DNA of 64,000 nt from an uncultured Acidobacteriaceae bacterium (GCA_963752675.1 CAVVZO010000015.1:564906-628905), one strand, 5' to 3'. Positions 2,237-62,103 are shown, counted from the first letter of the stretch. The notes: generated by a model not told the origin, from the letters alone. Program-made: numbers and translations.

Positions 2237-3649
2237 TCAGATACGCTGCTGCGCCCAACGGCCGCGGCGGAAGAGTACCAGGCTAATGAGCACAATGACG
2301 GATTGTGCGACAACGACCGAGGCGAAGACCCCGTTAATGCGCATACCGGTGTGCATAGCCAGCCACCAGGCCAAAGGGAGTTCTACTACCCAGAAGCCAA
2401 AGAGATTCACGTAGGTTGGGGTGAGGGTGTCTCCAGCACCGTTAAAGGCCTGCAGTAAGACCATGCCGTAGGCGTACGCGATGTTGCCGCAGCTGAAGAT
2501 GCGCAGACACCGAATAGCAGGGTCCAGGACTGCGGGATCACGGGTGAACAAGCCAATGATGCCCGGGGCGAAGGCGATGAAGATAAGGCCGACGGTGCCA
2601 AGGAACAGCATGTTCCAAAGCCCGGTCCGCCAAACGGCGTCGCGCGCTCGTTGGGGGTGGCCGGCGCCGAGGTTCTGACCAACCAGTGTTGCGGCGGCAT
2701 TGCTGAGCCCCCACGACGGCAGGATGGCGAAGATGACGATGCGGATACCGATGGTGTAAGCGGCCAGCGCTGGCGCGCCGAACAGGCTCACAATGCGCAC
2801 GAGGCCCAGCCAGCTTGCCTGCCCGATGAGGAATTGCAGTATCGCCGCCATGGATACCCGGACGAGCCGCCATAGGACTGTAGTGTGCAGGCGAAGGTGC
2901 CGCCGCAAAATCCGGATGCGTTCCGTGCCTTTGCCCAGACGGTAGAACTGGTAGAGCACCGCGATGCCCCGGCCAGAAAAGGTAGCCAGCGCAGCGCCGG
3001 TGACTCCCAGGCGAGGGAACGGGCCCAGGCCGAAGATGAGGCAGGGGTCCAGAACCAGGTTGAGAATGTTGGAAACCCACAACAGGCGCATGGCAATGGC
3101 CGCATCGCCGGCGCCGCGAAGGATGGCGTTGTTGAGAAACAGCAGCACCACCACCCCCGAGCCGCCGAGCGCGATGCGCGTATAGTTGGCCCCGCCGGCT
3201 ACGATGGCCGGCGTAGCCCCCATGAGAGTGAGCAGGTGGGGCGCCAGGAAAAAGAACGGCAATCCCATCAGGCAGGAAGCACTGAGGCCGAGAAATATGG
3301 CCTGCACGGCAGAGATGGCCGCGCCTTCAGGATCCTTTTCACCGATGCGTCGAGCCACCATAGCAGTAGTGGACATGCCCAGTCCCATGCCGACCGCGAA
3401 GACCAGGGTGAGCACGGACTCGGTGAGACCCACGGTGGCAATCGCGTCGGCCCCAAGACGGCTGACCCAAAAGACATCGACTACGGCAAAGAGGGACTCG
3501 AGCACCATCTCCAACACCATGGGGATGGCAAGCAGAAGGATGGAGCGATTGAGACTGCCCTCGGTGTAGTCCTGATGACTGCCGCGCAGGGCTTCTCGCA
3601 CAGAGTGCCAGAGCGTCGGGTTGGCGGTCGAGGAGATTTTAGGTGGCAT
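2237..3649 (-). CDS. MATE family efflux transporter
   Basis: 470 aa with about 12 hydrophobic segments. The N-terminus SILLLAIPMVLEMVLESLFAVVDVFWVSRLG is typical of NorM/DinF-type MATE proteins. Confidence 0.85.
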   Translation of the reverse strand: MPPKISSTANPTLWHSVREALRGSHQDYTEGSLNRSILLLAIPMVLEMVLESLFAVVDVFWVSRLGADAIATVGLTESVLTLVFAVGMGLGMSTTAMVARRIGEKDPEGAAISAVQAIFLGLSASCLMGLPFFFLAPHLLTLMGATPAIVAGGANYTRIALGGSGVVVLLFLNNAILRGAGDAAIAMRLLWVSNILNLVLDPCLIFGLGPFPRLGVTGAALATFSGRGIAVLYQFYRLGKGTERIRILRRHLRLHTTVLWRLVRVSMAAILQFLIGQASWLGLVRIVSLFGAPALAAYTIGIRIVIFAILPSWGLSNAAATLVGQNLGAGHPQRARDAVWRTGLWNMLFLGTVGLIFIAFAPGIIGLFTRDPAVLDPAIRCLRIFSCGNIAYAYGMVLLQAFNGAGDTLTPTYVNLFGFWVVELPLAWWLAMHTGMRINGVFASVVVAQSVIVLISLVLFRRGRWAQQRI

Positions 3650-5799: not shown

Positions 5800-6908
5800 G
5801 GCTCGCTTTCGGTGCCCGGCGTGGTCACCGCTGGGTGTTCTGATGGTGTTTCCGGCTCCGCGGTTTCGTCAGAGGGGACCTGGGGTGCGGCCTCTTCTTC
5901 TGGCTCTGCTTCGGGCGCCACGGATGGGTCTTCTATCGGGGCTTCTTCGTTTGCGGCTTCCGTGACAGCTTCGGTCTCGGTGGCTGCTTCGGTTTGATCC
6001 TCGGTGGCTGCTTCGGTTTGATCCTCGACTACGGCTTCGGCTTCGGTGGCAGCTTCGCCCTCGGTCCCTTTGGTCTCGGTTCCTCCGGTGCTCTCACTCA
6101 TGTGGACCAGCGGCTCAGTGGACGGCGCCAGGGCGTCTTGTGCTTCCCCTTCCGCTTCCGAGTCCGCCAGTTCCCCGGCCATCTTTTCGAACTCTTCCAT
6201 GCTCGGCAGATCGGTGAGATCTTTCAAGCCGAAGCGGAGCAGGAACTCCTTGGTTGTCTTGTAGAGGATGGGCCGGCCTATGACCTGTTTTCTTCCAGCC
6301 GTGCTGATCAGTTTTCGGCTCACCAGGCTGCCCAGCACGCCGCCTGAATCAACGCCGCGGATCTCGCTCACTTCCGGGGCGGTGACCGGCTGTTTGTAGG
6401 CGATGACGGCCAGCGTTTCAAGCGCCTGCAAGGAGAGCTTCATCGGCGGCTTGAGGCTCTTCACAAAGCCGCGCACCGCGTCATGATATTCAGGTTTTGT
6501 CGCCATGCGGTAGCCGCCGGCGATCTCGCGAATCTCCATCCCGCGGTCACTGCCGGCGTAGTCCCGGATGAGCTCTTCGAGCACGCTCTGCACTACCTGG
6601 CGCACCTGGCGGTCGCGCTGGCGAGCTAGCTTTTTTTCGTCAGCCTCGGGATTTTCGGCGGGTATGGTTGCGGCTTCTTCCGCAATGGACTCCGGCAGTG
6701 GCTCGGCTGGGTCTGCGCTGGATGCGGGGTCAGGCGCCATGCCGGCAAGCTCTATCTGCTCCGCGGGCGGCTCGGGTGGGGGTGCTGCTGCGGCTGCTTC
6801 CTCGAGCCCCTGCATCACCTCTTCCGCAAACATGGTGGCGAGCAGGGCCAGGGTGACTGGTTCCTCGGCTGCATAGACGACTGCTTCTAACTTCGCTTTT
6901 AGGCTCAT
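5796..6908 (-). CDS. scpB: Segregation and condensation protein B (ScpB) with acidic insertions and tail
   Basis: N-terminus LEAVVYAAEEPVTLALL. Core GMEIREIAGGYRMATKPEY...LSLQALETLAVIAYKQPVTAPEVSEIRGV...GRPILYKTTKEFLLRFGL. There is an extra ~60-aa acidic insert and a ~120-aa Glu/Thr/Ala-rich tail. Confidence 0.8.
   Translation of the reverse strand: MSLKAKLEAVVYAAEEPVTLALLATMFAEEVMQGLEEAAAAAPPPEPPAEQIELAGMAPDPASSADPAEPLPESIAEEAATIPAENPEADEKKLARQRDRQVRQVVQSVLEELIRDYAGSDRGMEIREIAGGYRMATKPEYHDAVRGFVKSLKPPMKLSLQALETLAVIAYKQPVTAPEVSEIRGVDSGGVLGSLVSRKLISTAGRKQVIGRPILYKTTKEFLLRFGLKDLTDLPSMEEFEKMAGELADSEAEGEAQDALAPSTEPLVHMSESTGGTETKGTEGEAATEAEAVVEDQTEAATEDQTEAATETEAVTEAANEEAPIEDPSVAPEAEPEEEAAPQVPSDETAEPETPSEHPAVTTPGTESEP
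5976..6023. repeat. Perfect 24-bp tandem duplication inside the scpB tail
   Basis: ctcggtggctgcttcggtttgatc occurs twice back to back (5976-5999 and 6000-6023). It encodes the repeated EDQTEAAT. Confidence 0.9.
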
Positions 6909-10738: not shown

Positions 10739-11070
10739 GCTTCCTACACCCGTCAAACGAATTCTGGCGAGTTTGGGCCCAGGGCCACCGCAAACCACGC
10801 GGGGGCACCCACGGAACAAGGCAGAACCTAAACATCCAAATGAACCAGTGCCGGGAGTCTACCCTGCCATTCTGTCCTTTTCAACGCATTTCGCATACAG
10901 GGAGGGTTTCCGCTTCAACTTTTGTAACATTGACGTTTCGCAAGACCGGCTGGACCGTCATGGAGCGAACTCCGGTTTCTGAAGAGTCGTTAACCTTCTA
11001 TCTAAATGCAGTTGTTCTATCCACACGGTTGCCTAACCCATAAGAGTTGCCTGTTCTTACGCGCTGCTTT

Positions 11071-11249
11071 CCAAGCCACAAGCAGCCGCAAACCGAAGCC
11101 TCCACTCTCCCCTTTGTCCTAAGTCCCGTAGGGACGGGATCGCTGGCAACGCGACCGTTCGTTCCGCCCTTTACTTGCCAGGCAAGTCGCGCTCTTGGGA
11201 TGACAAAGGAGAGAGTGGTGGCTTTGGTTTTGCGGCTGCTTGTGCTTGG
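11071..11249. repeat. MITE-like palindromic element: ~50-bp inverted repeats around a ~77-bp centre
   Basis: The left arm is ccaagccacaagcagccgcaaaccgaagcctccactctcccctttgtcc (11071-11119). It matches the reverse complement of the right arm gggatgacaaaggagagagtggtggctttggttttgcggctgcttgtgcttgg (11197-11249). The centre holds two small hairpins, gtcccgtagggac and cttgccaggcaag. Confidence 0.75.
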
Positions 11250-11300
11250 AAGAGCAGCTCGCAATGTGGAGGCCTTTGCCTACCTGTAAACCCTGTGGGA

Positions 11301-35752: not shown

Positions 35753-35839
35753 GTTTAACTCCTCAATCAATGAGATGCCAAGGCTGGGAGGCGGGTCACC
35801 TTCCGGAGGCGGAACGGAGAAGAAAAGCACCGGAAATGA

Positions 35840-35886
35840 GGCTTGAGTGGCCCATTGCAAGCCGCGTTTGGCTTGAGTGGGGGACA
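35840..35886. repeat. Single arm of the REPIN-like hairpin family
   Basis: ggcttgagtggcccattgcaagccgcgtttggcttgagtgggggacat is the same unit as the arms at 41641, 44216 and 61903. Confidence 0.7.
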
Positions 35887-35928
35887 TCTCCACCTCTCCC
35901 GAAGCTTAGGAGATATCCTTTAATTCTT

Positions 35929-37997
35929 ATGGATGAACAAACAATCGCTCCGCCGGTTGCCCGGCGCGATGAGACCGTCACTACACTGCACGGCCACCAG
36001 TTAGTGGACGAGTATGCCTGGCTCCGGGAAAAAACCAGCCCGGAGGTCATTGCATTTCTTGAGCAGGAAAACGCCTACACCCGCGCAGTCATGAAGCCGA
36101 CGGAAGAGTTGCAGGGCCGGCTCTACACGGAGATGCTCAGCCACATCAAGGAAAGCGATGTCTCGGTGCCATTTCGAGACAAGCAGCACTACTACTACTC
36201 ACGGACAGAGCAAGGGGCGCAGTACCCCATTTATTGCCGCAAGCACGGCTCCCTGGAAGCCCCGGAAGAAATCATCCTGGACATGAACCAGATGGCAGCC
36301 GGCGAAGGGTACCTGGCGCTCGGTGCGCTCACCGTCTCAGACGACGGCTATCTGCTGGCCTATTCGACCGACACGACCGGGTTTCGGCAATACACCCTGC
36401 ACATAAAGGATCTGCGCACGGGCGAGGTCCTGCCCGACCAGGCGGAACGGGTTGGCTCCGTTGTGTGGGCTGCCGATAACCGCACGTTGTTCTACAGCGT
36501 GGAGGATGAGGAGACCAAGCGGCAATACCAGCTCTTCCGGCATACGCTGGGCGCTTCCCAAAGCAGTGACGTGCTGGTCTTCGAAGAAGCAGATGAGCGC
36601 TTCAACGTAGGCGCGGGCCGCACCCGGGACGACAAATATCTCGTCTTCGAAAGCGCCAGCCACACTACCAGCGAAGCCAGGTTCCTTCCGGCAGATCAGC
36701 CGCGAAGGATCGTGGACGATGATCGAGCCGCGGCGCGAGAACATCGAGTACTACGGAGACCATCGAGAAGGCTTCTGGTATCTGCGGGTGAACGATACCG
36801 CGAGGACCTTTCGCCTGGTCGCCGCTCCGGTGGCAACACCAGGTCGCGCGCATTGGCGCGAACTGATCGCTCACCGGGACGACGTCATGCTGGAAGATGT
36901 GGAGCTGTTCCAGGCGTTCGCAGTGGCGGTTGAACGCAGCAACGGATTGCCGCAGATGCGTGTGTTGTATCTTCGATCAACAGAACGGCTTTAGCGGGCC
37001 GACTCCACAGATTGCTTTCCCTGAGCCTACGTACAGCGCACACCCGGGAACCAATCGGGAATTTGTCACTGACAAGTTTCGTTACGGCTACCAATCGCTG
37101 GTTTCGCCCACTTCGGTTTACGAATACGACGTACAGACAAAGCAGTCGACGTTGCTGAAGGAACTGGAGGTACCCGGCGGATTCGATCGCGCGCTCTATG
37201 CCTCGGAGCGAGTCTTTGCAACCGCTTCGGACGGAGTGAAGATCCCTATCTCTCTCGTGTATCGCAAGGACAAAAAGGGGCACGGCACGAATCCCTTGTA
37301 CATCTACGGCTACGGCTCGTACGGGTATGCATTACCGGTGGGGTTCAATTCCAATCGTCTCAGTTTGCTCGATCGTGGATTCGTTCTGGCCTATGCGCAC
37401 ATTCGCGGCGGCGGCGATATGGGTAAACCCTGGCACGATGCTGGGCGGCTGATGCAGAAGATGAACACCTTTACGGATTTCATCGCCGTGACTGAATACC
37501 TGACAGCACAGGGCTATGGAGACCCACAGCGGGTGGCTATGGAAGGCGGAAGCGCTGGAGGACTGTTAATGGGGGCGGTGGCCAATATGCGACCGGACCT
37601 GTACCGCGCGGTTCTGTCGCACGTCCCCTTCGTCGATGTGATGAACACCATGCTGGATGCATCGCTTCCCCTCACCGTCGCCGAGTACGAGGAATGGGGT
37701 GATCCAAACCAACCCGAAGCCTTCGCGTACATGCTGCAGTACTCGCCCTACGACAACCTGGCGAGGAAGGATTATCCGGCAATGCTGGTCAAGACCTCTC
37801 TGAACGATAGCCAGGTCATGTATTGGGAGCCCGCGAAATACGTGGCGAAGCTGCGCAGTCTCAAGTCGGACAATCGCCTGCTGCTGCTGGAAACAAACAT
37901 GAGCGCGGGCCACGGCGGTGCTTCAGGACGCTACGACTACCTGAAAGAGATCGCGCTGGATTACGCCTTTCTGCTGCAGGAACTGGGCGTCCACTAA
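35929..37997 (+). pseudogene. ptrB: Oligopeptidase B (S9A prolyl oligopeptidase family), with two frameshifts (~36699-36701 and ~36961-36970)
   Basis: N-terminus PPVARRDETVTTLHGHQLVDEYAWLRE. Middle part, in the second frame, IEPRRENIEYYGDHREGFWYLRVND. The catalytic domain, in the third frame, has GGSAGGLLMG (Ser), LNDSQVMYWEPAKY and GHGG. Start is ATG 35929. Confidence 0.8.
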
Positions 37998-38059: not shown

Positions 38060-39448
38060 TTAGCGGCGCTCTCCACCACCCTGATGAGGCTCGTTGTGGG
38101 GTTGACCGCCGCCCGGGTTCTGGTGCGGCTGCTCGAAGTGGGGCTGAGGAGCAGCTCCCTGGTGCATAGGCTCCGGGTTCCTCGGGGCAGCAGTATAACG
38201 AGCATCGTTCCCGGCCGAGGGATGGTACCCATTGTTGGCCGGCTGCTGGTACATCGGACTGGCCTGCGGACGGTTGTTGTTGGCCGGCTGCTGATACGCC
38301 GGGCTGGCCTGCGGACGGTTGTTGTTGGCCGGCTGCTGGTACATCGGGCTGGCCTGCGGGCGATTGTTGTTGGCCGGCTGCTGATACATCGGGCTGGCCT
38401 GCGGGCGATTGTTGTTGGCCGGCTGCTGATATGCCGGGTGGAAGCCATTGTTGGGCTGGGCCTGACCGTAGGCGGGCCGGTTATTGTTGACCGGTTGCTG
38501 GTACCCCGGGCGAACTCCAGCATTCGTTTGGCTCTGACCGAAGGCAGGCTGCGTGTTGTTGGCCGGCTGCTGGTACGCCGGGCGGACCCCGACATTCGGT
38601 TGGTTCTGACCGAAGGCTGGCAGCGTGTTGTTGGCCGGCTGCTGGTAGCCTGCATTCGCCTGCGGACGGGCAGCGTTGTTGATCTGGTTCTGGTTCACCG
38701 CGGGCCGGCTGTTGCTGCCAAAGGCCGGGCTCTTGCTGACATTCTGGGTAGCCATGGCCTGGCTGGTGATGGGACGAGGAACAGCCGCCATGGCCGGCCG
38801 GCCACCGTTCACCGAGGCGAAGTTCGCCCGGTTGGCCGCGGAAAACCGCTCGTGCGACATTTGCTCCGCCGTTGGTTGCACATGCTGATCGTGCACGGCC
38901 ACCTGCTCCCCAGGACGCGGCCTGGCGTTGATGCCGCCGGGACCGTTATAGCTGGTGCGGTTGATGATGGTCGTGTTGTTGATCACGGTGCGGTCGATGT
39001 AGGTGTTATGCACGACTCTATTGTCCACATGCAGCACGGCAGCGTTGTAGCGGAAGTGATCTCGTTCCCACCGGCCACCATAGAAGCCGTCGCCCCCGTA
39101 GCCGTAGCCATAGTTCACACCGCCGTAGAAGCCCACGTGGGGGCCCCAGTAACCGCTGTGCCAGAGGTACGCGCCGTCACCCCAGCCCCAGTACCCAGGA
39201 GTCCAGAGATAGCCCGGGCGGGGCGCTAACACCCAGGTCCCAGGTACCCAGAAGTAGCCTTCGTCACCGTAAGCCCAGTAGCCCGGCGTCCAAAGATAGT
39301 CATCTCCCGGGCAAACGGGCTGCGCATAGACGGGCAGCACCGGCGGTGCAATGGTGACGGAAAGAAATATGCCGGCGAAGGATGGCGCTGGAACGATTGA
39401 CACCAGCGTCGCAAGAAGTAAAGTTCGGATTGCTCGGATAGCACGCAT
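38060..39448 (-). CDS. YXWGXW-repeat secreted protein with a long Gln/Asn/Pro-rich tandem-repeat tail
   Basis: Signal peptide MRAIRAIRTLLLATLVSIVPAPSFA. The repeats are YLWTPGYWAY, YFWVPGTWV, YLWTPGYWGW and YLWHSGYWG. These are followed by three 24-aa units and four 15-aa units (YQQPANNNRPQASPM). Confidence 0.7.
   Translation of the reverse strand: MRAIRAIRTLLLATLVSIVPAPSFAGIFLSVTIAPPVLPVYAQPVCPGDDYLWTPGYWAYGDEGYFWVPGTWVLAPRPGYLWTPGYWGWGDGAYLWHSGYWGPHVGFYGGVNYGYGYGGDGFYGGRWERDHFRYNAAVLHVDNRVVHNTYIDRTVINNTTIINRTSYNGPGGINARPRPGEQVAVHDQHVQPTAEQMSHERFSAANRANFASVNGGRPAMAAVPRPITSQAMATQNVSKSPAFGSNSRPAVNQNQINNAARPQANAGYQQPANNTLPAFGQNQPNVGVRPAYQQPANNTQPAFGQSQTNAGVRPGYQQPVNNNRPAYGQAQPNNGFHPAYQQPANNNRPQASPMYQQPANNNRPQASPMYQQPANNNRPQASPAYQQPANNNRPQASPMYQQPANNGYHPSAGNDARYTAAPRNPEPMHQGAAPQPHFEQPHQNPGGGQPHNEPHQGGGERR
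38231..38455. repeat. 45-bp tandem repeat, about 4.5 copies, inside the YXWGXW gene
   Basis: Units start at 38231, 38276, 38321, 38366 and 38411 (gttgttggccggctgctg[ga]tac[ag][tc]cgg[ga]ctggcctgcgg[ag]cg[ga]tt). More degenerate 72-bp units continue to about 38700. Confidence 0.85.
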
Positions 39449-41435: not shown

Positions 41436-41745
41436 TTTGTCATCCCGAGCAATCTGCTTGCAGTGCAAGTTAAGGACGGGATGAACCGGGGTGCGATACG
41501 CATCGGTCTGGCTGAGGGAGCGGAGCAGGATGTCCCCACTCAAGCCAAACGCGGCTTGAGTGGGCCACCCTCGGCTTTTCTGGATGCGGGCAGGGAGCAA
41601 ATCCTCCTGAGTGGCGACTGATCGGACCCTAAAAACTTTAGGGTGGCCCATTCAAGCCGCGTTTGGCTTGAGTGGGGGACATTTGAACCCTCGTCCAGAG
41701 CGCATTTCAGTTTGTTCATTACGAGCGCAGTCGAGGGATGACAAA
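41436..41745. repeat. Composite nested-palindrome element, copy 1 (REPIN/MITE-like): left flank X, 42-bp IR, 70-bp core, 42-bp IR, right flank Y
   Basis: IR-L is at 41529-41570 and IR-R at 41641-41682, and they are reverse complements. Each arm contains its own hairpin ccactcaagcc-N6-ggcttgagtgg. Outer termini are tttgtcatccc and gggatgacaaa. A paralogous copy lies at 61697-62000. Confidence 0.8.
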
Positions 41746-42037
41746 AAGGGTGGGGACCAGAGGTGATGGTGCGGGAAAGGACCAAGTGCTCAAGATTCTC
41801 AATCAGACTCAAAGCGGCGGGTAGATCAAAAGGCAAGCGCCTGTGAGCGGTTAGCCCACAGGCGCGCCGAAGAGCAGCCCTCCCCCAGAACTGATCCTCG
41901 AACAGCAAGATACCCGCCGAAGACGTACTTTCCTACATCACGCCCGTTATCCCCCGCCGTGACCAATGCGGAGGTTACCTGGCTCGGGCATTGTGTGATA
42001 CATCCTTGTGGTGCCTGCAGACGCTTGTTGACCTCCC

Positions 42038-44068: not shown

Positions 44069-44089
44069 CCGTCGAGCCTGGGGCACACC

Positions 44090-44264
44090 GGTGTAGATGT
44101 ACCCCGCTCAAGCCAAACACGGCTTGAATGGGCCACCCGGGTTCTTCTTTGGGTGAGGGTAGCAACGAGAGTTTCCCAAAGGATTAGCTTTCTCGCGAAA
44201 ACACAAACTACCGCTGGGTGGCCCATTCAAGCCGTGTTTGGCTTGAGTGGGGTACATCTACACC
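44090..44264. repeat. REPIN-like element, copy 3: 49-bp inverted repeats around a 77-bp core
   Basis: ggtgtagatgtaccccgctcaagccaaacacggcttgaatgggccaccc (44090-44138) matches the reverse complement of 44216-44264. Confidence 0.8.
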
Positions 44265-44420
44265 GACGAATGGCAAATTGCCGACAGCCACCGCGGAATG
44301 CGCTCCGCTTGCCAAGCACGTCGAAGGGGGCCGATGAGGATGTGCGGCTCGCTCACCAGTGCGGGCTACAAGTTTGGTACAGCCCGGAAGACGTTCCGGG
44401 TTGCGGGGCTTAGTGGGCCC

Positions 44421-46687
44421 CTACTCGCCGAAGTTGATGCGTAGACCAAATCGAGCTACGCGCGGCGAGGCCAATGTAAGCGTTGGCGTTTTGCCGGCTT
44501 CGATTGTGCGGTCGAAGAGGTTGTCGCCGGCCGCAAACGCTGTCAGCCGGTGACCGAAATCGTGGGAAGCGTAAGCTCCGAAACGAAAATAACTGTGCAG
44601 GAGGAACTGATTGGCATCGTCGTCATACTGCCGCCCGCTGAGGCGGCCCTGCAGACTAAGCAAGCCCAGCCGGCGGCGAGAAAAGGTGAGCTGGGTGGTG
44701 GCCATGTTGCGAGCAACCTGCGGTATCCAATTCCCGACTATTTGGGGTTGCTGCGTATAGCTGGTGACGGTGGCATCGGCGTATTGATAGCCACCTTCGA
44801 TACCAACCCAGCTCGCCGGACGTGATGCAAAGTCGACTGAGATGCCCCGGCTCTCGATCTGGCCCAGGTTCTCCCGCTTCAGGAGCACGCTGCTGGGTGT
44901 GGAACTCAAGGTGAGCGCGGTGATCGGCCGGTTGATGCGGGTCCAGAAGTAGCTGACGCGGACGGTTGAACCAACCGATGGCAAATCGGCGTGTACCCCT
45001 GCTTCCCAGCCAGTAGCGCGCTCTGAGCGCAAATTGGGGTTGGGCTGGGTGGTTTGCGAGCCCACCTGGCCGGTACGGTAAAGCTCATTCTCAGTCGGCG
45101 CGCGATAGGCGCGGAAGGCTGAGGCATTCAGGGCCAGCGTCGAAGTGATGCGGCGGGTAATCCCAAGCCGCGGGTCGAACACGGTCTCATTGAGTGCCGG
45201 CAGCTTTAAAGGAGCCGTCGCCGTCTTGTACTGGTTGGCGTCAAAGTTCGAGAAGTGATCGACCCTGCCGGAAAGGCTGACCGTCCAGGCCGGCGGGGTA
45301 AACAGGACTTCTCCGTACGCGCCGCTCTGCCGTTGGCGAGCAGTGGTATTCAAATAGCCTTTGGCACCGGTAAACAGGGTTTCGTAATCAGCCGCACGCA
45401 CGTCGTGGATGTCTGCTCCCGCGAGCAGCAGCACGTGAGACCCGACCGTCTGATGCCAATGCCCTGCGGCTCCCAGTTCACCCGCGGGGTTCTTTCCCAG
45501 GCGTGTCTGCGTCTCACTTTTACGGGAAGCAGCAATGCTGGAAAAGGTCTGCGAGTAATGCTCGGTGTCTCCGAAAACCCGTAGGACCAGGTTGCTCCAG
45601 TCTGCTCCGGCAGCGTAGCGCCAAAGGCGCGTGCTGTTGATCTGAATGGGGGTTCCATTGTGGCGATCTTCGTTCAGAATGCTGCCGCGTAGGAAAAAAC
45701 GACCGCCGGAACCCAGAGCGTGGTCGAACTCCGTCAAGCCGTTCTGGGCGTGCACGTTATAAGGCGTGTCGATCGGGCCGCGAGCGCTCGGGGCGATGAG
45801 GACGTACCCGTCCGTAGCAATCAGCTGCGAGCTGAGCAGGCCAGACCACTTGCCGGCCTTCACTGTGCCGAGAAGCGAGCTGTCTGACGTGGCCTCAGAA
45901 CCGTAGCTGCTGGAAAGCTGAAAGCGGTTGTGCTCGGGACGGACAGGGAACGATGCTGATGACCCCGCCGATCGCGCTCGACCCGTACAGGTCAGAGGCG
46001 CCGCCACGCACCAGTTCCACGGAATGAATCACGGGGGGAGGCAGTTCTTCCCAATGGATCCAGCCGCCGAATGGGTCGGCAATCGGAATATCGTCAAAGG
46101 CCACGAGTGAGCGGCTAGCGGCGGTGGACCCTAGTCCGCGGAGCGACACGCCCTCCGTGGTGGGGTTGGCCACGAGCGAACTGGTGCGGCGGAAAAGCTC
46201 GAAGCCGGGAACCTGGCGCAGCTTGTCGTCGAGCGAAATGCCGGCTGCCTGCCGCAGGTGCTGCGCACTGAGCATGCGCGTACTGGCTGGGCTGTCTCCG
46301 GAAGCCAGCGGCGACCGATACGCGGTCACCAGAACGCTTTCCAATGGGTGCTCCATGAGCACATGTACAGGAGAAGGTCCCTGCAGCGTGACTGCGGTCG
46401 GCTCATAGTGGGTGGCGGTGATTTGCACCTCGCCGGCAGTCGCGGGCACGGTAAAGCTGCCATCGGAAGCGGAGGTGGCCAGCAGATTCCCCGAGCTGTC
46501 TCTTATTTCAGCCCCGGGAACCGGCTGATTCCGGGCATCCACAATGGTTCCCGGAAAGAGTCGCGGGTGCGGTAGGCTGCTGCGCGGGCGCGTATTGGCT
46601 GAGGGCCAACGACAGGAGCACCGGGAGGATCAGAGCGCGGAGACGGCCGGAATGACACTTCTGGTGCAAAGTCGTTGAAAACAACAT
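44421..46687 (-). pseudogene. TonB-dependent receptor (CarboxypepD_reg, plug and barrel), with two frameshifts (46550-46552 and 45946-45948)
   Basis: Signal peptide MLFSTTLHQKCHSGRLRALILPVLLSLALSQYAPAQQ starts at ATG 46687. The second frame has TIVDARNQPVPGAEIRD and the plug domain (ORF 45895-46542). The barrel is in the third frame (ORF 44421-46007) and ends FGLRINFGE. Both shifts are at CCC/GGG runs. Confidence 0.8.
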
Positions 46688-53867: not shown

Positions 53868-53878
53868 TGAAGGGTGGA

Positions 53879-53921
53879 GATGTCCCCCACTCAAGCCAAA
53901 AGCGGCTTGAATGGGCCACCC
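53879..53921. repeat. Single arm of the REPIN-like family, followed by a degenerate partner
   Basis: gatgtcccccactcaagccaaaagcggcttgaatgggccaccc. A weak second arm (ggtggcctgccttgaagccgctcacgg) lies near 54001-54027. Confidence 0.7.
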
Positions 53922-53971
53922 AGAGTTGTTTGGGGTGAGTAGAGAGGCGGTAGTTGTGGGGGGTTTTTTTT
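53884..53971 (+). terminator. Possible structured terminator between addB and addA
   Basis: cccccac (53884-53890) can pair with gtggggg (53956-53962), enclosing the REP hairpin. TTTTTTTT follows directly at 53964-53971. This is a structure guess only. Confidence 0.35.
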
Positions 53972-57611: not shown

Positions 57612-58124
57612 TTAGTAGTAGAGGTACTTTCTCCACTTGTGATCGGAATGGCCAATCATGCGCATGATGTGACGGCTGGTGTGCAGCGAAAACGGTCGAG
57701 GCTCGCGCATGAGCTTAATGTCGCTTAGCTCGTGCAGCAAATGATTGCCTTTGCGCCGATTGCAGGAGTGACAGCAGGCCACCAGGTTTTCCCAGGTAGA
57801 CAGACCACCACGCGAACGCGGCAACACGTGGTCGAGCGTCAGTTCACCCGCCGGCAACACCACTCCGCAGTATTGGCAGCTGTTGCGATCGCGCAGGAGG
57901 ATGTTCTTGCGCGATAAGGCGCGGGTCTGGTGCGGGATGCGACGATATTCCAACAGGCGAATGACGGAAGGCATGGGAACGCGCAATAACGCGGCATGCA
58001 GAATCGCGCCCTGCTCTTCTTCGGTTTTCGCGACCCCTTTTAAAACGAGAATCAGCGCCCGGCGCGCACCGCAGATGTTGATGGGTTCATAGGAGGCGTT
58101 CAGTACCAGCACCGGCTTCTGCAT
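57612..58124 (-). CDS. HNH endonuclease (small, stand-alone)
   Basis: The start was trimmed to ATG 58124 (170 aa). Motif: CQYCG...LTLDHVLPRSRGG...WENLVACCHSCNRRKGN. The upstream part of the long ORF overlaps comF in another frame. Confidence 0.8.
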   Translation of the reverse strand: MQKPVLVLNASYEPINICGARRALILVLKGVAKTEEEQGAILHAALLRVPMPSVIRLLEYRRIPHQTRALSRKNILLRDRNSCQYCGVVLPAGELTLDHVLPRSRGGLSTWENLVACCHSCNRRKGNHLLHELSDIKLMREPRPFSLHTSRHIMRMIGHSDHKWRKYLYY

Positions 58125-58285
58125 GGTGTATGCCGACGAAACTCGTTGGCCTGGCCAACCCTCATGCGTGTCGGCAGTGTCATGCGGCAGCGCACGATTT
58201 TGTGCAATTGCTTTCGGCTTGCGTGAGTGGACCATGGCTTTTCCCAAAGACATCTCGATCCTCCGTGAGCTTTCTTGCAAACTAC

Positions 58286-59155
58286 CTAGTGCAGGGCTTG
58301 CTCCGTTTTCGGAGATGGCCCCAATTGACTGGGCAGAAATCCAGGATCCCAGGCGGCGACTCCTTCGCGTTGCGCCCGGGCGACCGTGACGACCCACACC
58401 GAGGCAGCGCCCGCGCTGCGCAGCACGCGGCTGCAGGCGCGTGCTGTTGCGCCGGTCGTGTAGACATCGTCCACCAGCAGCACATGCCGTCCTTTGACTC
58501 CGCTGGGCTGGGACACAAAAAAAGCGCCACGCAAATTCTCGCGGCGCTGGCGGGTGGTCAACCCTGCCTGACTCACGGTGACCCGCATTCGTTGCAGCAC
58601 ATTGGACGCAAGAGACAAGGTCCATGGGCAATGGCGGTGCCTTAGGCTTTTGATAGCCGCGCGCGCAAGAAGCTCGGCATGATTGAAGCCGCGCTGGCGC
58701 TGCTTGGCTGCGTGCATCGGTACCGGCATGACCAGGAGCTCGAGAGGCATATCCGGAGCAGCAACCAGCGTACCGAGGCTTTCCGCAAGGAACTCACCGA
58801 GCGCAGCAGCGACCGGCTGCATTCCCTCGTACTTAAGCAGATGGATTAGCGATCGCAGCTGCCCCTGGTAGTTCCCATAGGCAACGGCTCTCGCAAATGC
58901 GGGAGGCGCCAGGCGGCAGGGCTGACAGAGCACTGGCGGGGCGCTCTCCGTAGGCAATGGGGAGAACTGGGCGATACCCATATCTTCGCCACAACAGGCG
59001 CAAAGGGTACCAGCTTCTGGGGGAACATGCGTGCAGCAGTGGTCGCAAAGAGGGGCGCGGGTCAAGCGCAGGAGAGAGCCGCCACAGAGGGCGCAGGAGG
59101 CAGGAAATAACACGCAGGCAAGGCTATCCGCGGGACTTCGTAGCACGCGGACCAC
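58286..59155 (-). CDS. comF: ComF-family phosphoribosyltransferase-domain protein
   Basis: N-terminal Cys pairs are CALCGG...CDHC...CACCG...CQPC. The PRTase motif is VLLVDDVYTTGAT. The start is uncertain. GTG 59155 was chosen because the full ORF would overlap the divergent OPT gene. Confidence 0.7.
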   Translation of the reverse strand: MVRVLRSPADSLACVLFPASCALCGGSLLRLTRAPLCDHCCTHVPPEAGTLCACCGEDMGIAQFSPLPTESAPPVLCQPCRLAPPAFARAVAYGNYQGQLRSLIHLLKYEGMQPVAAALGEFLAESLGTLVAAPDMPLELLVMPVPMHAAKQRQRGFNHAELLARAAIKSLRHRHCPWTLSLASNVLQRMRVTVSQAGLTTRQRRENLRGAFFVSQPSGVKGRHVLLVDDVYTTGATARACSRVLRSAGAASVWVVTVARAQREGVAAWDPGFLPSQLGPSPKTEQALH

Positions 59156-61629: not shown

Positions 61630-61696
61630 TCCCGAATCGCCAGGTTAACCGTTTATCAGCCACAAGCAACTACTAAGGAAATAAACTACCCTTCGC

Positions 61697-62000
61697 TTTG
61701 TCATCCCCAGGAATTTGCTTGCAGTGCAAGTTAAGGACGAAGCAATGAACGGGGTGCGATACGCATCGGTTTGGCTGACGAGGGTTAAGATGTCCCCCAC
61801 TCAAGCCAAACGCGGCTTGAGTGGGCCACCCTACAGTTCTTGAGGTCCGATCAGTTGCCACCCAGGAGGATCTGCTTTCTGCCCGCATCCCGAGAAAGCC
61901 GAGGGTGGCCCATTCAAGCCGCGTTTGGCTTGAGTGGGGGACATTTCAACCCTCGTCCAGAGCGCTTTCCAGTTTGTTCATAGGAGCGCAGCCGAGGGAT
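61697..62000. repeat. Composite nested-palindrome element, copy 2, with the core inverted relative to copy 1
   Basis: IR-L is at 61789-61831 and IR-R at 61903-61944. The flanks are colinear with copy 1. The core at 61832-61902 aligns with copy 1 only as its reverse complement. Confidence 0.8.
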
Positions 62001-62103
62001 TGCGGTGCGCCTTGACCGCTAGCGAATGCCCAAAACATGAAGCCACAAGCGACTGCAAAGGAAAAAGGTGATGACACCAGGTGCCCCCCTTCGCCTACAT
62101 CGC

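Follow-up and report, generated by a model that had tools for sequence, protein, structure and literature searches.

A dispersed, REPIN-centred acidobacterial repeat with an inverted spacer in one of two copies

Introduction

The window analysed here is a stretch of 64,000 nucleotides from an uncultured Acidobacteriaceae bacterium (GCA_963752675.1, CAVVZO010000015.1:564906-628905). It carries two related elements of about 310 bp in which a pair of inverted repeats encloses a short core. Outside the core, the two copies run in the same direction; the core itself runs in opposite directions in the two. What kind of element is this, and how did the core of one copy come to be reversed? From the sequence alone, the initial annotation had proposed an inversion mediated by the inverted repeats, either as an inverton-like switch or by recombination within a REPIN-type hairpin.

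The surroundings are those of an ordinary acidobacterial chromosome, with a GC content of about 60% and genes for HerA, AddAB-like, OPT, TonB-receptor, ScpA/B and TrpRS/TyrRS-type proteins. Pfam scans of about 48 open reading frames (ORFs) in the window returned housekeeping genes and a single HNH-domain protein only. The latter (57612-58631, minus strand) is encoded immediately after the AddAB-like genes, on their downstream side; no other accessory gene in the window is nuclease-like, and nothing ties it to the repeats. Two of the genes are split into overlapping ORFs, namely a prolyl oligopeptidase (35770-36933 and 36897-37997) and a TonB-dependent receptor with plug and barrel (44421-46007 and 45895-46542), which may reflect frameshifts, pseudogenes or sequencing errors. 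Degenerate internal repeats with an offset of about 45 nt and 80-92% identity, at 38232-38650, lie in an ORF with WXXGXW repeats and are a coding repeat.

A reversed core between colinear arms and flanks

Copy 1 opens with a left flank (41436..41528, plus strand) that begins with TTTGTCATCCCGAG; it is 94.6-96.7% identical to the left flanks of three copies from other sources (L117, L118 and L119, described below) and 83% identical to that of copy 2. Next comes the left arm (41529..41570, plus), which has a GATGT foot, a perfect 12-bp stem, the GAGTGGG variant and a CCACCC tail. The core follows (41571..41640, plus) in the common orientation, termed configuration A, and is 97% identical in direct alignment to the cores of L117, L118 and L119. 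The right arm (41641..41682, minus) has an AATGT foot, the GAATGGG variant and a C.A / G.T mismatch, and the right flank (41683..41745, plus) reads AACCCTCGTCCAGAGCGC...GTTTGTTCAT...GGGATGACAAA.

Copy 2 is built from the same parts in the same order. Its left flank (61697..61787, plus) is 83-86% identical to the configuration A left flanks. The left arm (61788..61831, plus, with its start at 61788 or 61789) shows the same arm-specific variants as the left arm of copy 1 and is 100% identical to the left arms of L117, L118 and L119, and the right arm (61903..61944, minus) is 100% identical to all the other right arms. The right flank (61945..62000, plus) is 92-97% identical over its first 36 nt, which is the part compared. 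Between the arms, the core (61832..61902, minus) is reversed with respect to every other copy, an arrangement termed configuration B.

These boundaries agree to within 1 nt with those first proposed, and alignment confirmed that the flanks are colinear. The description of the arms as near reverse complements was likewise borne out: the 42-43-nt arms are near-identical, with two positions separating left from right. The description of the whole as ~310-bp palindromes held for the inner 154-181 bp (arms plus spacer), but the complete 310-bp unit is not palindromic. Similarly, both members of the proposed pair of paralogues are real, but the window holds further relatives at 44089-44265, 53871-53936 and 35844-35900.

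The relationship of the two cores was examined by computed global alignment. When 41571-41640 is compared with the reverse complement of 61832-61902, 60/71 positions match with a score of 48, which reproduces the earlier hand count of about 60 of 71. It had been recognised that a good direct alignment of the cores would mean that the hand alignment was misleading. The same pair in direct orientation gave 39/76 matches and a score of -5, which is chance level (1,000 shuffles gave a mean score of -12.1, a standard deviation of 4.2 and a maximum of 2), and so the observation stands. The self-complementarity of the two cores is low (36/71 and 40/76), as had been claimed. Further, a self-BLAST of the window recovered both the colinear flanks and the reversed relationship of the cores.

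The arms are REP sequences

Each arm is a hairpin in its own right, consisting of CCCACTCAAGCC, a 6-nt loop and GGCTTGA(A/G)TGGG, with the foot GATGT and the tail CCACCC. An 18-mer from the arm, GGCTTGARTGGGCCACCC, was scanned against one genome per GTDB species, with the matches reported as 8-kb stretches. At least 109 such stretches were matched, almost all from Terriglobia or Acidobacteriaceae genomes or metagenome-assembled genomes. Among the matched stretches listed, the hairpin is kept almost letter for letter in otherwise unrelated surrounding sequence. The 103 canonical units found among these listed matches share the same stem mismatch (C.A / G.T, depending on the strand) in 80% of cases and have a 7-nt loop in 92%. 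A short imperfect palindrome with a 12-bp stem and a 6-7-nt loop, present in many copies, is what is expected of a repetitive extragenic palindromic (REP) sequence.

The connection with a REP-associated tyrosine transposase (RAYT) comes from related genomes. In Acidobacteriaceae bacterium ZG23-2 (CP085323.1, L071), two inverted arms bracket an ORF of 183 amino acids with HVH and YIHRNP motifs. This ORF (6061-6612, minus strand) scores 116 bits against the NCBIfam model NF047646, REP-associated tyrosine transposase, for which the cut-off is 80, and it matches Pfam Y1_Tnp at 7.7e-11. The layout is the same at this locus and at three others (L019, L110 and L084): the RAYT gene is preceded, at a distance of 25-75 nt, by an inverted REP, while its 3' end runs into a forward REP, which supplies the C-terminal ...PHSSQKRA of the protein. 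RAYT fragments stand beside REPs in about 15 further loci. REPs thus flank RAYT genes in at least four related genomes, and the window itself is without a RAYT, as the initial annotation had said (the lowest E-value in a tblastn search with a RAYT from Acidobacteria was 3.8). Since the same hairpin brackets RAYT genes in related genomes, the arms are the REP sequences of a REP/RAYT system, and that system is widespread in Terriglobia (Acidobacteriota).

These REPs show no clear GTAG or CGTC tag at their 5' foot. The foot in the window is GATGT; in other genomes the foot 5' of the stem is ACTGC, ACTAC or ACATC, and GTAG is seen only on the complementary strand, 3' of the stem. The tag, however, is the defining feature of the GTAG-tagged REP families with their group 2/3 RAYTs, and not of all REPs (PMC3733652; PMC8266576).

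Several variants were observed in passing. In four loci (L016, L019, L026 and L101) the REP loop is enlarged by about 30 nt (AACCCGTTCG...CTCAGGG), apparently with a second small hairpin inside the loop. A RAYT gene is broken by a REP insertion in L019 (3387-4001), and in L084 two RAYT copies, one of them degenerate, lie inside a REP cluster (1816-2371 and 3039-3392). The variant closest to that of the window, among the matches listed, is found in L094 and L114 (CAZZVD01, 'uncultured Acetobacteraceae bacterium Brown_J.bin.3'); these carry an acidobacterial REP with the GATGT foot of the window and an AAACGC/AAAAAC loop, and their label probably denotes a mislabelled or contaminated bin. A scan of viral contigs (IMG/VR) gave four matches to the arm and none to the outer flank. 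Two of these contigs, L003 and L005, share an identical REP-bearing stretch and may be prophage or misclassified acidobacterial DNA.

REP units and REPINs in the window

A 30-nt arm motif has 7 matches in the window at up to 3 mismatches, against 0 expected. In total, the window holds 8 REP units, three sets of which are hairpin-forming doublets. All 8 are intergenic and lie between Pfam-supported genes. Besides the two copies described above, there is a third doublet (44089..44265, no strand assigned), which lacks outer flanks and whose 77-nt spacer has diverged. Of the solo units, one lies between the AddB-like and AddA-like genes (53871..53936, plus), and another (35844..35900, minus) has its tail degraded to CCACTC.

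When modelled as single-stranded DNA, the three doublets are predicted to form hairpins of -60.7, -75.0 and -72.3 kcal/mol (z -9.3, -13.7 and -13.4), the unit at 44089-44265 being the one with -72.3 kcal/mol and z -13.4. Since they are predicted to fold into single long hairpins, the doublets fit the REPIN definition of Bertels & Rainey 2011 (PMC3116915). The REPIN-type hairpin that the initial annotation had offered as one of its two possibilities was thereby upheld, on account of arms that flank RAYT genes and doublets that fold.

A composite repeat dispersed as a unit

Repeats of this kind yield spurious ORFs, and translations of the element were therefore searched against called proteins. 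The copies found at the protein level comprise right flank, REP and core (P0001 and P0002) or left flank, REP and core (P0003-P0007); all of these spurious ORF products are in the orientation of copy 1. Four of them (P0001, P0002, P0004 and P0007) are known from protein only, and P0007 is most likely a third composite copy in the genome of the window itself. At the DNA level, three more copies (L117, L118 and L119) come from soil metagenomes. They lie in differing genomic flanks, share the orientation of copy 1 and match it at 96-97% identity across about 290-310 bp. The census is thus of 5 DNA copies and about 5 protein-level copies, found through gene calls and to that extent biased in detection.

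Near-identical copies in unrelated flanks imply that the composite of about 290-310 bp is a dispersed repeat that moves as a unit. The two elements of the window are copies of this dispersed acidobacterial repeat, which is built around a REPIN. An orthologous site without the element supports its mobility. In a relative that is 90.5% identical (L120, at 1-137 and 2413-2734, and L121), homology around the 676-aa gene of the window stops at 41796 and 44070. The site has no composite copy 1, which the two contigs either lack or end short of, and no counterpart of the REPIN at 44089-44265. The absence of both fits insertion and presence/absence dynamics. A different repeat module stands in place of composite copy 1.

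Neither outer flanks nor core were found in the at least 109 arm-bearing GTDB stretches, among the matches listed, and a metagenome scan with the outer-flank 18-mer GCAGTGCAAGTTAAGGAC gave two chance matches, both in unrelated AT-rich contigs.

The ends of the composite, TTTGTCATCCCGAG | ... | GAGCGCAGTCGAGGGATC, belong to a repeat of which an intact unit lies downstream in L118. The composite appears to be inserted in this common acidobacterial 'TTTGTCATCCCGAG/CGCAGTCGAGGGATC' repeat. Copy 2 is bracketed by the direct repeats AGCCACAAGC[A/G]ACT[A/G]C[T/A]AAGGAAA at 61658-61681 and 62041-62064. A related 'GCCACAAGCCAAAACACAGCAAC...' module is present beside the composite in L117 (about 268-414); it also opens L120 and is seen in translated form in P0002. 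The modules around the composite indicate a mosaic, BIME-like assembly from several modules. Elsewhere in the window, at 11057-11264, there is a palindromic MITE-like element of about 205 bp, whose arms of 56-64 nt are 87-90% complementary; it has 'CCTTTGTCC...GGGATGACAAAGG' and 'AAGCCACAAGCAGCCGCAAA' modules, which are building blocks common to the composite ends.

Extent and age of the inversion

Among the 5 DNA and about 5 protein-level copies, copy 2 is the sole flipped one, and a protein search with a query specific to configuration B gave 0 candidates. Its core is 84.5-87.3% identical to the configuration A cores, in reverse complement only. Flanks and core of copy 2 have diverged from configuration A (83-86% in the left flank), while both arms are 100% identical. 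The arms are under much stronger constraint than the rest of the composite, as expected for elements that a RAYT recognises. With 83-87% identity in left flank and core, copy 2 is therefore an old, diverged member of the family rather than a standard copy flipped in recent times.

The two arms can be told apart. The left arm has GATGT..GAGTGGG and a perfect stem in 5/5 DNA copies, and the right arm, read in the same sense, has AATGT..GAATGGG and a mismatched stem, also in 5/5. As these arm-specific variants are colinear with the flanks in every copy, the arms were not flipped, and the breakpoints lie inside the inner 12 nt of the arms. The inverted segment would comprise the spacer together with no more than the 12 innermost nucleotides (TGGGCCACCC[T]) of either arm. 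That the flip involved the spacer and not the arms rests on the two nucleotide positions that separate left from right arm, which are consistent in 5/5 copies. The inversion is confined to the spacer, and the flipped copy is a rare, diverged form. A crossover within the inner 12 nt of a 42-nt arm has a prior of about 0.3 under uniform exchange, which counts against this arrangement.

The left arm of copy 2 is extended on its 5' side by GACGAGGGTTAA, a mirror of the extension on the right arm, which gives arms of 56 nt with 95% complementarity. The left extension differs in configuration A, which is a further sign that copy 2 and configuration A have had separate histories.

How the spacer came to be reversed

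The explanation that we favour, and regard as probable, is one old inversion between the inverted REP arms, a historical event and not a switching one. Two inverted REPs and a spacer of about 70 nt constitute a REPIN, a non-autonomous element predicted to fold as a long hairpin, and this REPIN sits inside the larger mosaic repeat of about 290-310 bp that is dispersed as a unit, with copy 1 as the standard arrangement. In copy 2, the spacer (with at most the inner 12 nt of the arms) would have been inverted once, in an old diverged member of the family. The route was probably intramolecular recombination, or a template switch during replication, between the near-perfect inverted REP arms of 42-56 nt; a dedicated recombinase would not be needed. 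We infer that the flip is now fixed in the lineage of copy 2 rather than switching. The proposal of the initial annotation that a segment between inverted arms had been inverted in one lineage of the family is supported by the reverse-complement core between colinear arms and flanks.

Another way to obtain the same arrangement is a swap without inversion in situ, in which the REPIN or interior of copy 2 was replaced or re-inserted in reverse by transposition or ectopic gene conversion. REP arms read alike on both strands, and either register would allow them to pair, be it with a second REPIN copy or with a single-stranded intermediate after excision. In favour of a swap are the mobility of REPINs, the 96-97% identity between copies from different loci, and the lack of both composite copy 1 and the REPIN at 44089-44265 at the orthologous site of the 90.5%-identical relative. 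Moreover, the whole inner element of copy 2 is 92% identical, over 168 nt, to the reverse complement of configuration A, and its left 5' extension mirrors the right one, unlike in configuration A. The two arm-specific variants of copy 2, however, are colinear with the flanks, and a reversal of the whole REPIN is disfavoured because four extra substitutions (at the two sites) would be required. The copy 2 core is 13-15% diverged, about as much as the left flank, and bears no sign of a recent donor; nor did the configuration-B-specific query find a configuration B donor. Such a swap is considered unlikely.

Could the RAYT itself have flipped the spacer? As an HUH nuclease, it would nick both arm-spacer junctions, on opposite strands, at CT (CCACC|CT), and strand transfer or repair would reinstate the spacer in reverse. 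The breakpoints lie within 12 nt of the junction, and the CT dinucleotide is present at 4/4 arm-spacer junctions. The TnpAREP proteins of E. coli and S. maltophilia cleave single-stranded REP at CT, 5' or 3', and carry out strand transfer, and that of Marinomonas cleaves at CT and CA (PMC8266576). Nevertheless, CT is a common dinucleotide, the tail reads CCACCCG in most other genomes, and there is only one event, so that a flip catalysed by a RAYT seems very unlikely. We know of no biochemical precedent for inversion by RAYTs. An analogue would be the parvoviral hairpins, which exist in flip and flop forms. If the spacer had been turned in this manner, REPINs would have 'flip' and 'flop' forms, and the heterodimeric arms would keep a polarity independent of the spacer.

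A live switch, in which a recombinase acting in trans flips the spacer and so alters a read-through transcript (for example, by turning its AGGAGG stretch), was the other possibility that had been raised. The geometry is suitable, as inverted repeats bound a non-palindromic segment, and both orientations exist in one genome, though at different loci. Against this, no serine or tyrosine recombinase of the invertase kind and no transposase was detected by the Pfam scans of about 48 ORFs in the 64 kb, which agrees with what had been said of recombinases at the outset. The core has no promoter-like site, a scan for sigma-70-type sites having found none in or near either core. Of the other copies, 7-9 share one orientation and none has the flipped one; the flipped copy differs by 13-16% in sequence and so is not a recent flip of the standard copy. 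Further, the arms are REPs common to hundreds of solo units that cannot invert. The switch is thus hardly credible, and the reading of the locus as a live system probably gives way to that of an ancient rearrangement, in line with the grounds that had been named for abandoning it: apparently fixed subfamilies, with one orientation in the other copies recovered, an old flipped copy and no recombinase in the window.

Other functions considered for the element fared no better. Between the AGGAGG stretch and the nearest possible start codon there are about 165 nt or more, beyond the range of a ribosome-binding site, and the idea that it drives a small ORF was rejected on that account. A terminator was rejected since there is no T-run, the 'terminator-like' matches being sub-hairpins of the REP. 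A known structured RNA, another earlier suggestion, was rejected on the Rfam result: the whole window gave 0 matches at the gathering threshold, and both elements at E <= 1 gave only a spurious mir-642 (42 bits against 90).

Least probable of all is an assembly artefact, in which the assembler set the spacer between the 43-56-nt inverted repeats in the wrong orientation: inverted repeats longer than the k-mer size do leave the orientation of the enclosed segment ambiguous, and the repeats do interrupt short-read contigs of the organism (as in L001, which terminates in the REP at 44136), but the source contig of about 1.1 Mb suggests long reads or a large k, reads of more than about 100 nt would span one arm and fix the orientation, and the copy 2 core, with substitutions of its own and a 1-nt indel, is a real, separate sequence.

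Relation to known systems

REPINs and their RAYT were defined in Pseudomonas fluorescens SBW25 (Bertels & Rainey 2011, PMC3116915). The elements of the window resemble those REPINs in having two inverted REPs with a less conserved spacer, a long single-stranded hairpin, extragenic location and many copies. In both systems the REPs flank a single-copy RAYT, and conservation is far higher in the arms than between them. The differences lie in the dimensions and the setting. At about 42 nt, made up of a 12-bp stem with its foot and tail, the REP of the window exceeds theirs in length, as does its spacer of 70-77 nt (with a start-to-start spacing of 112-113 nt). The arms form a 'heterodimer', the left stem being perfect and the right one mismatched, and the REPIN lies inside a larger mosaic repeat, which is mobile as a whole. 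Other Terriglobia units, among the matches listed, are mostly singlets, or doublets with their tails outward. A word search of the SBW25 text found neither 'flip' nor 'inversion' and no passage on the orientation of the spacer (PMC3116915).

For other phyla, Di Nocera et al. 2013 (PMC3733652) describe REP dimers with conserved spacers of 20-100 bp, heterodimers, and dimers 'inserted within long palindromic sequences', as well as tyrosine-transposase genes that lie between REPs, with overlap at the 3' end of the gene. The composite has the same architecture as the nested REP dimers and the E. coli BIMEs treated there. It differs in that the GTAG/CGTC tag is not clearly present, the foot being GATGT, and in that it belongs to another phylum; in other genomes the stem is often preceded on its 5' side by CTAC, CTGC or CATC, mirroring the canonical 5'-GTAG position.

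For the inversion itself, the closest parallel is outside bacteria. The hairpin-loop inversions of plastid genomes (Kelchner & Wendel 1996, as summarised in a review, PMC12371153) are described there as pervasive and as the outcome of hairpin-mediated recombination without a dedicated recombinase. In these, too, a short unique segment is reversed between inverted repeats while stems and flanks stay colinear. According to that review, they are mostly of 4-50 bp, organellar and often recurrent, whereas the present case is a single event of 70 bp in a bacterial mobile repeat. Invertons, such as fimS/FimBE, hin and those of Bacteroides, likewise have inverted repeats that bound a non-palindromic segment. 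Unlike them, the elements of the window have no nearby invertase and no promoter cargo, and their repeats are REP hairpins of 42-56 nt that are common to non-invertible units.

Significance

As it stands, the flip is a fossil rearrangement for which no regulatory role is indicated. The palindromic acidobacterial repeat is placed firmly in a known class, that of REP/REPIN elements with a RAYT. Its REP hairpin, which varies by hardly a letter among many genomes of Terriglobia, is useful for annotation. REP units generate many spurious ORFs ('...PTQAKRGLEWAT...', 'PHSSQKR') and break short-read assemblies. The flipped spacer offers a clean natural case of a REPIN whose interior has been inverted while its two slightly different arms kept their polarity; should such flips prove recurrent, they would bear on how REPINs are processed.
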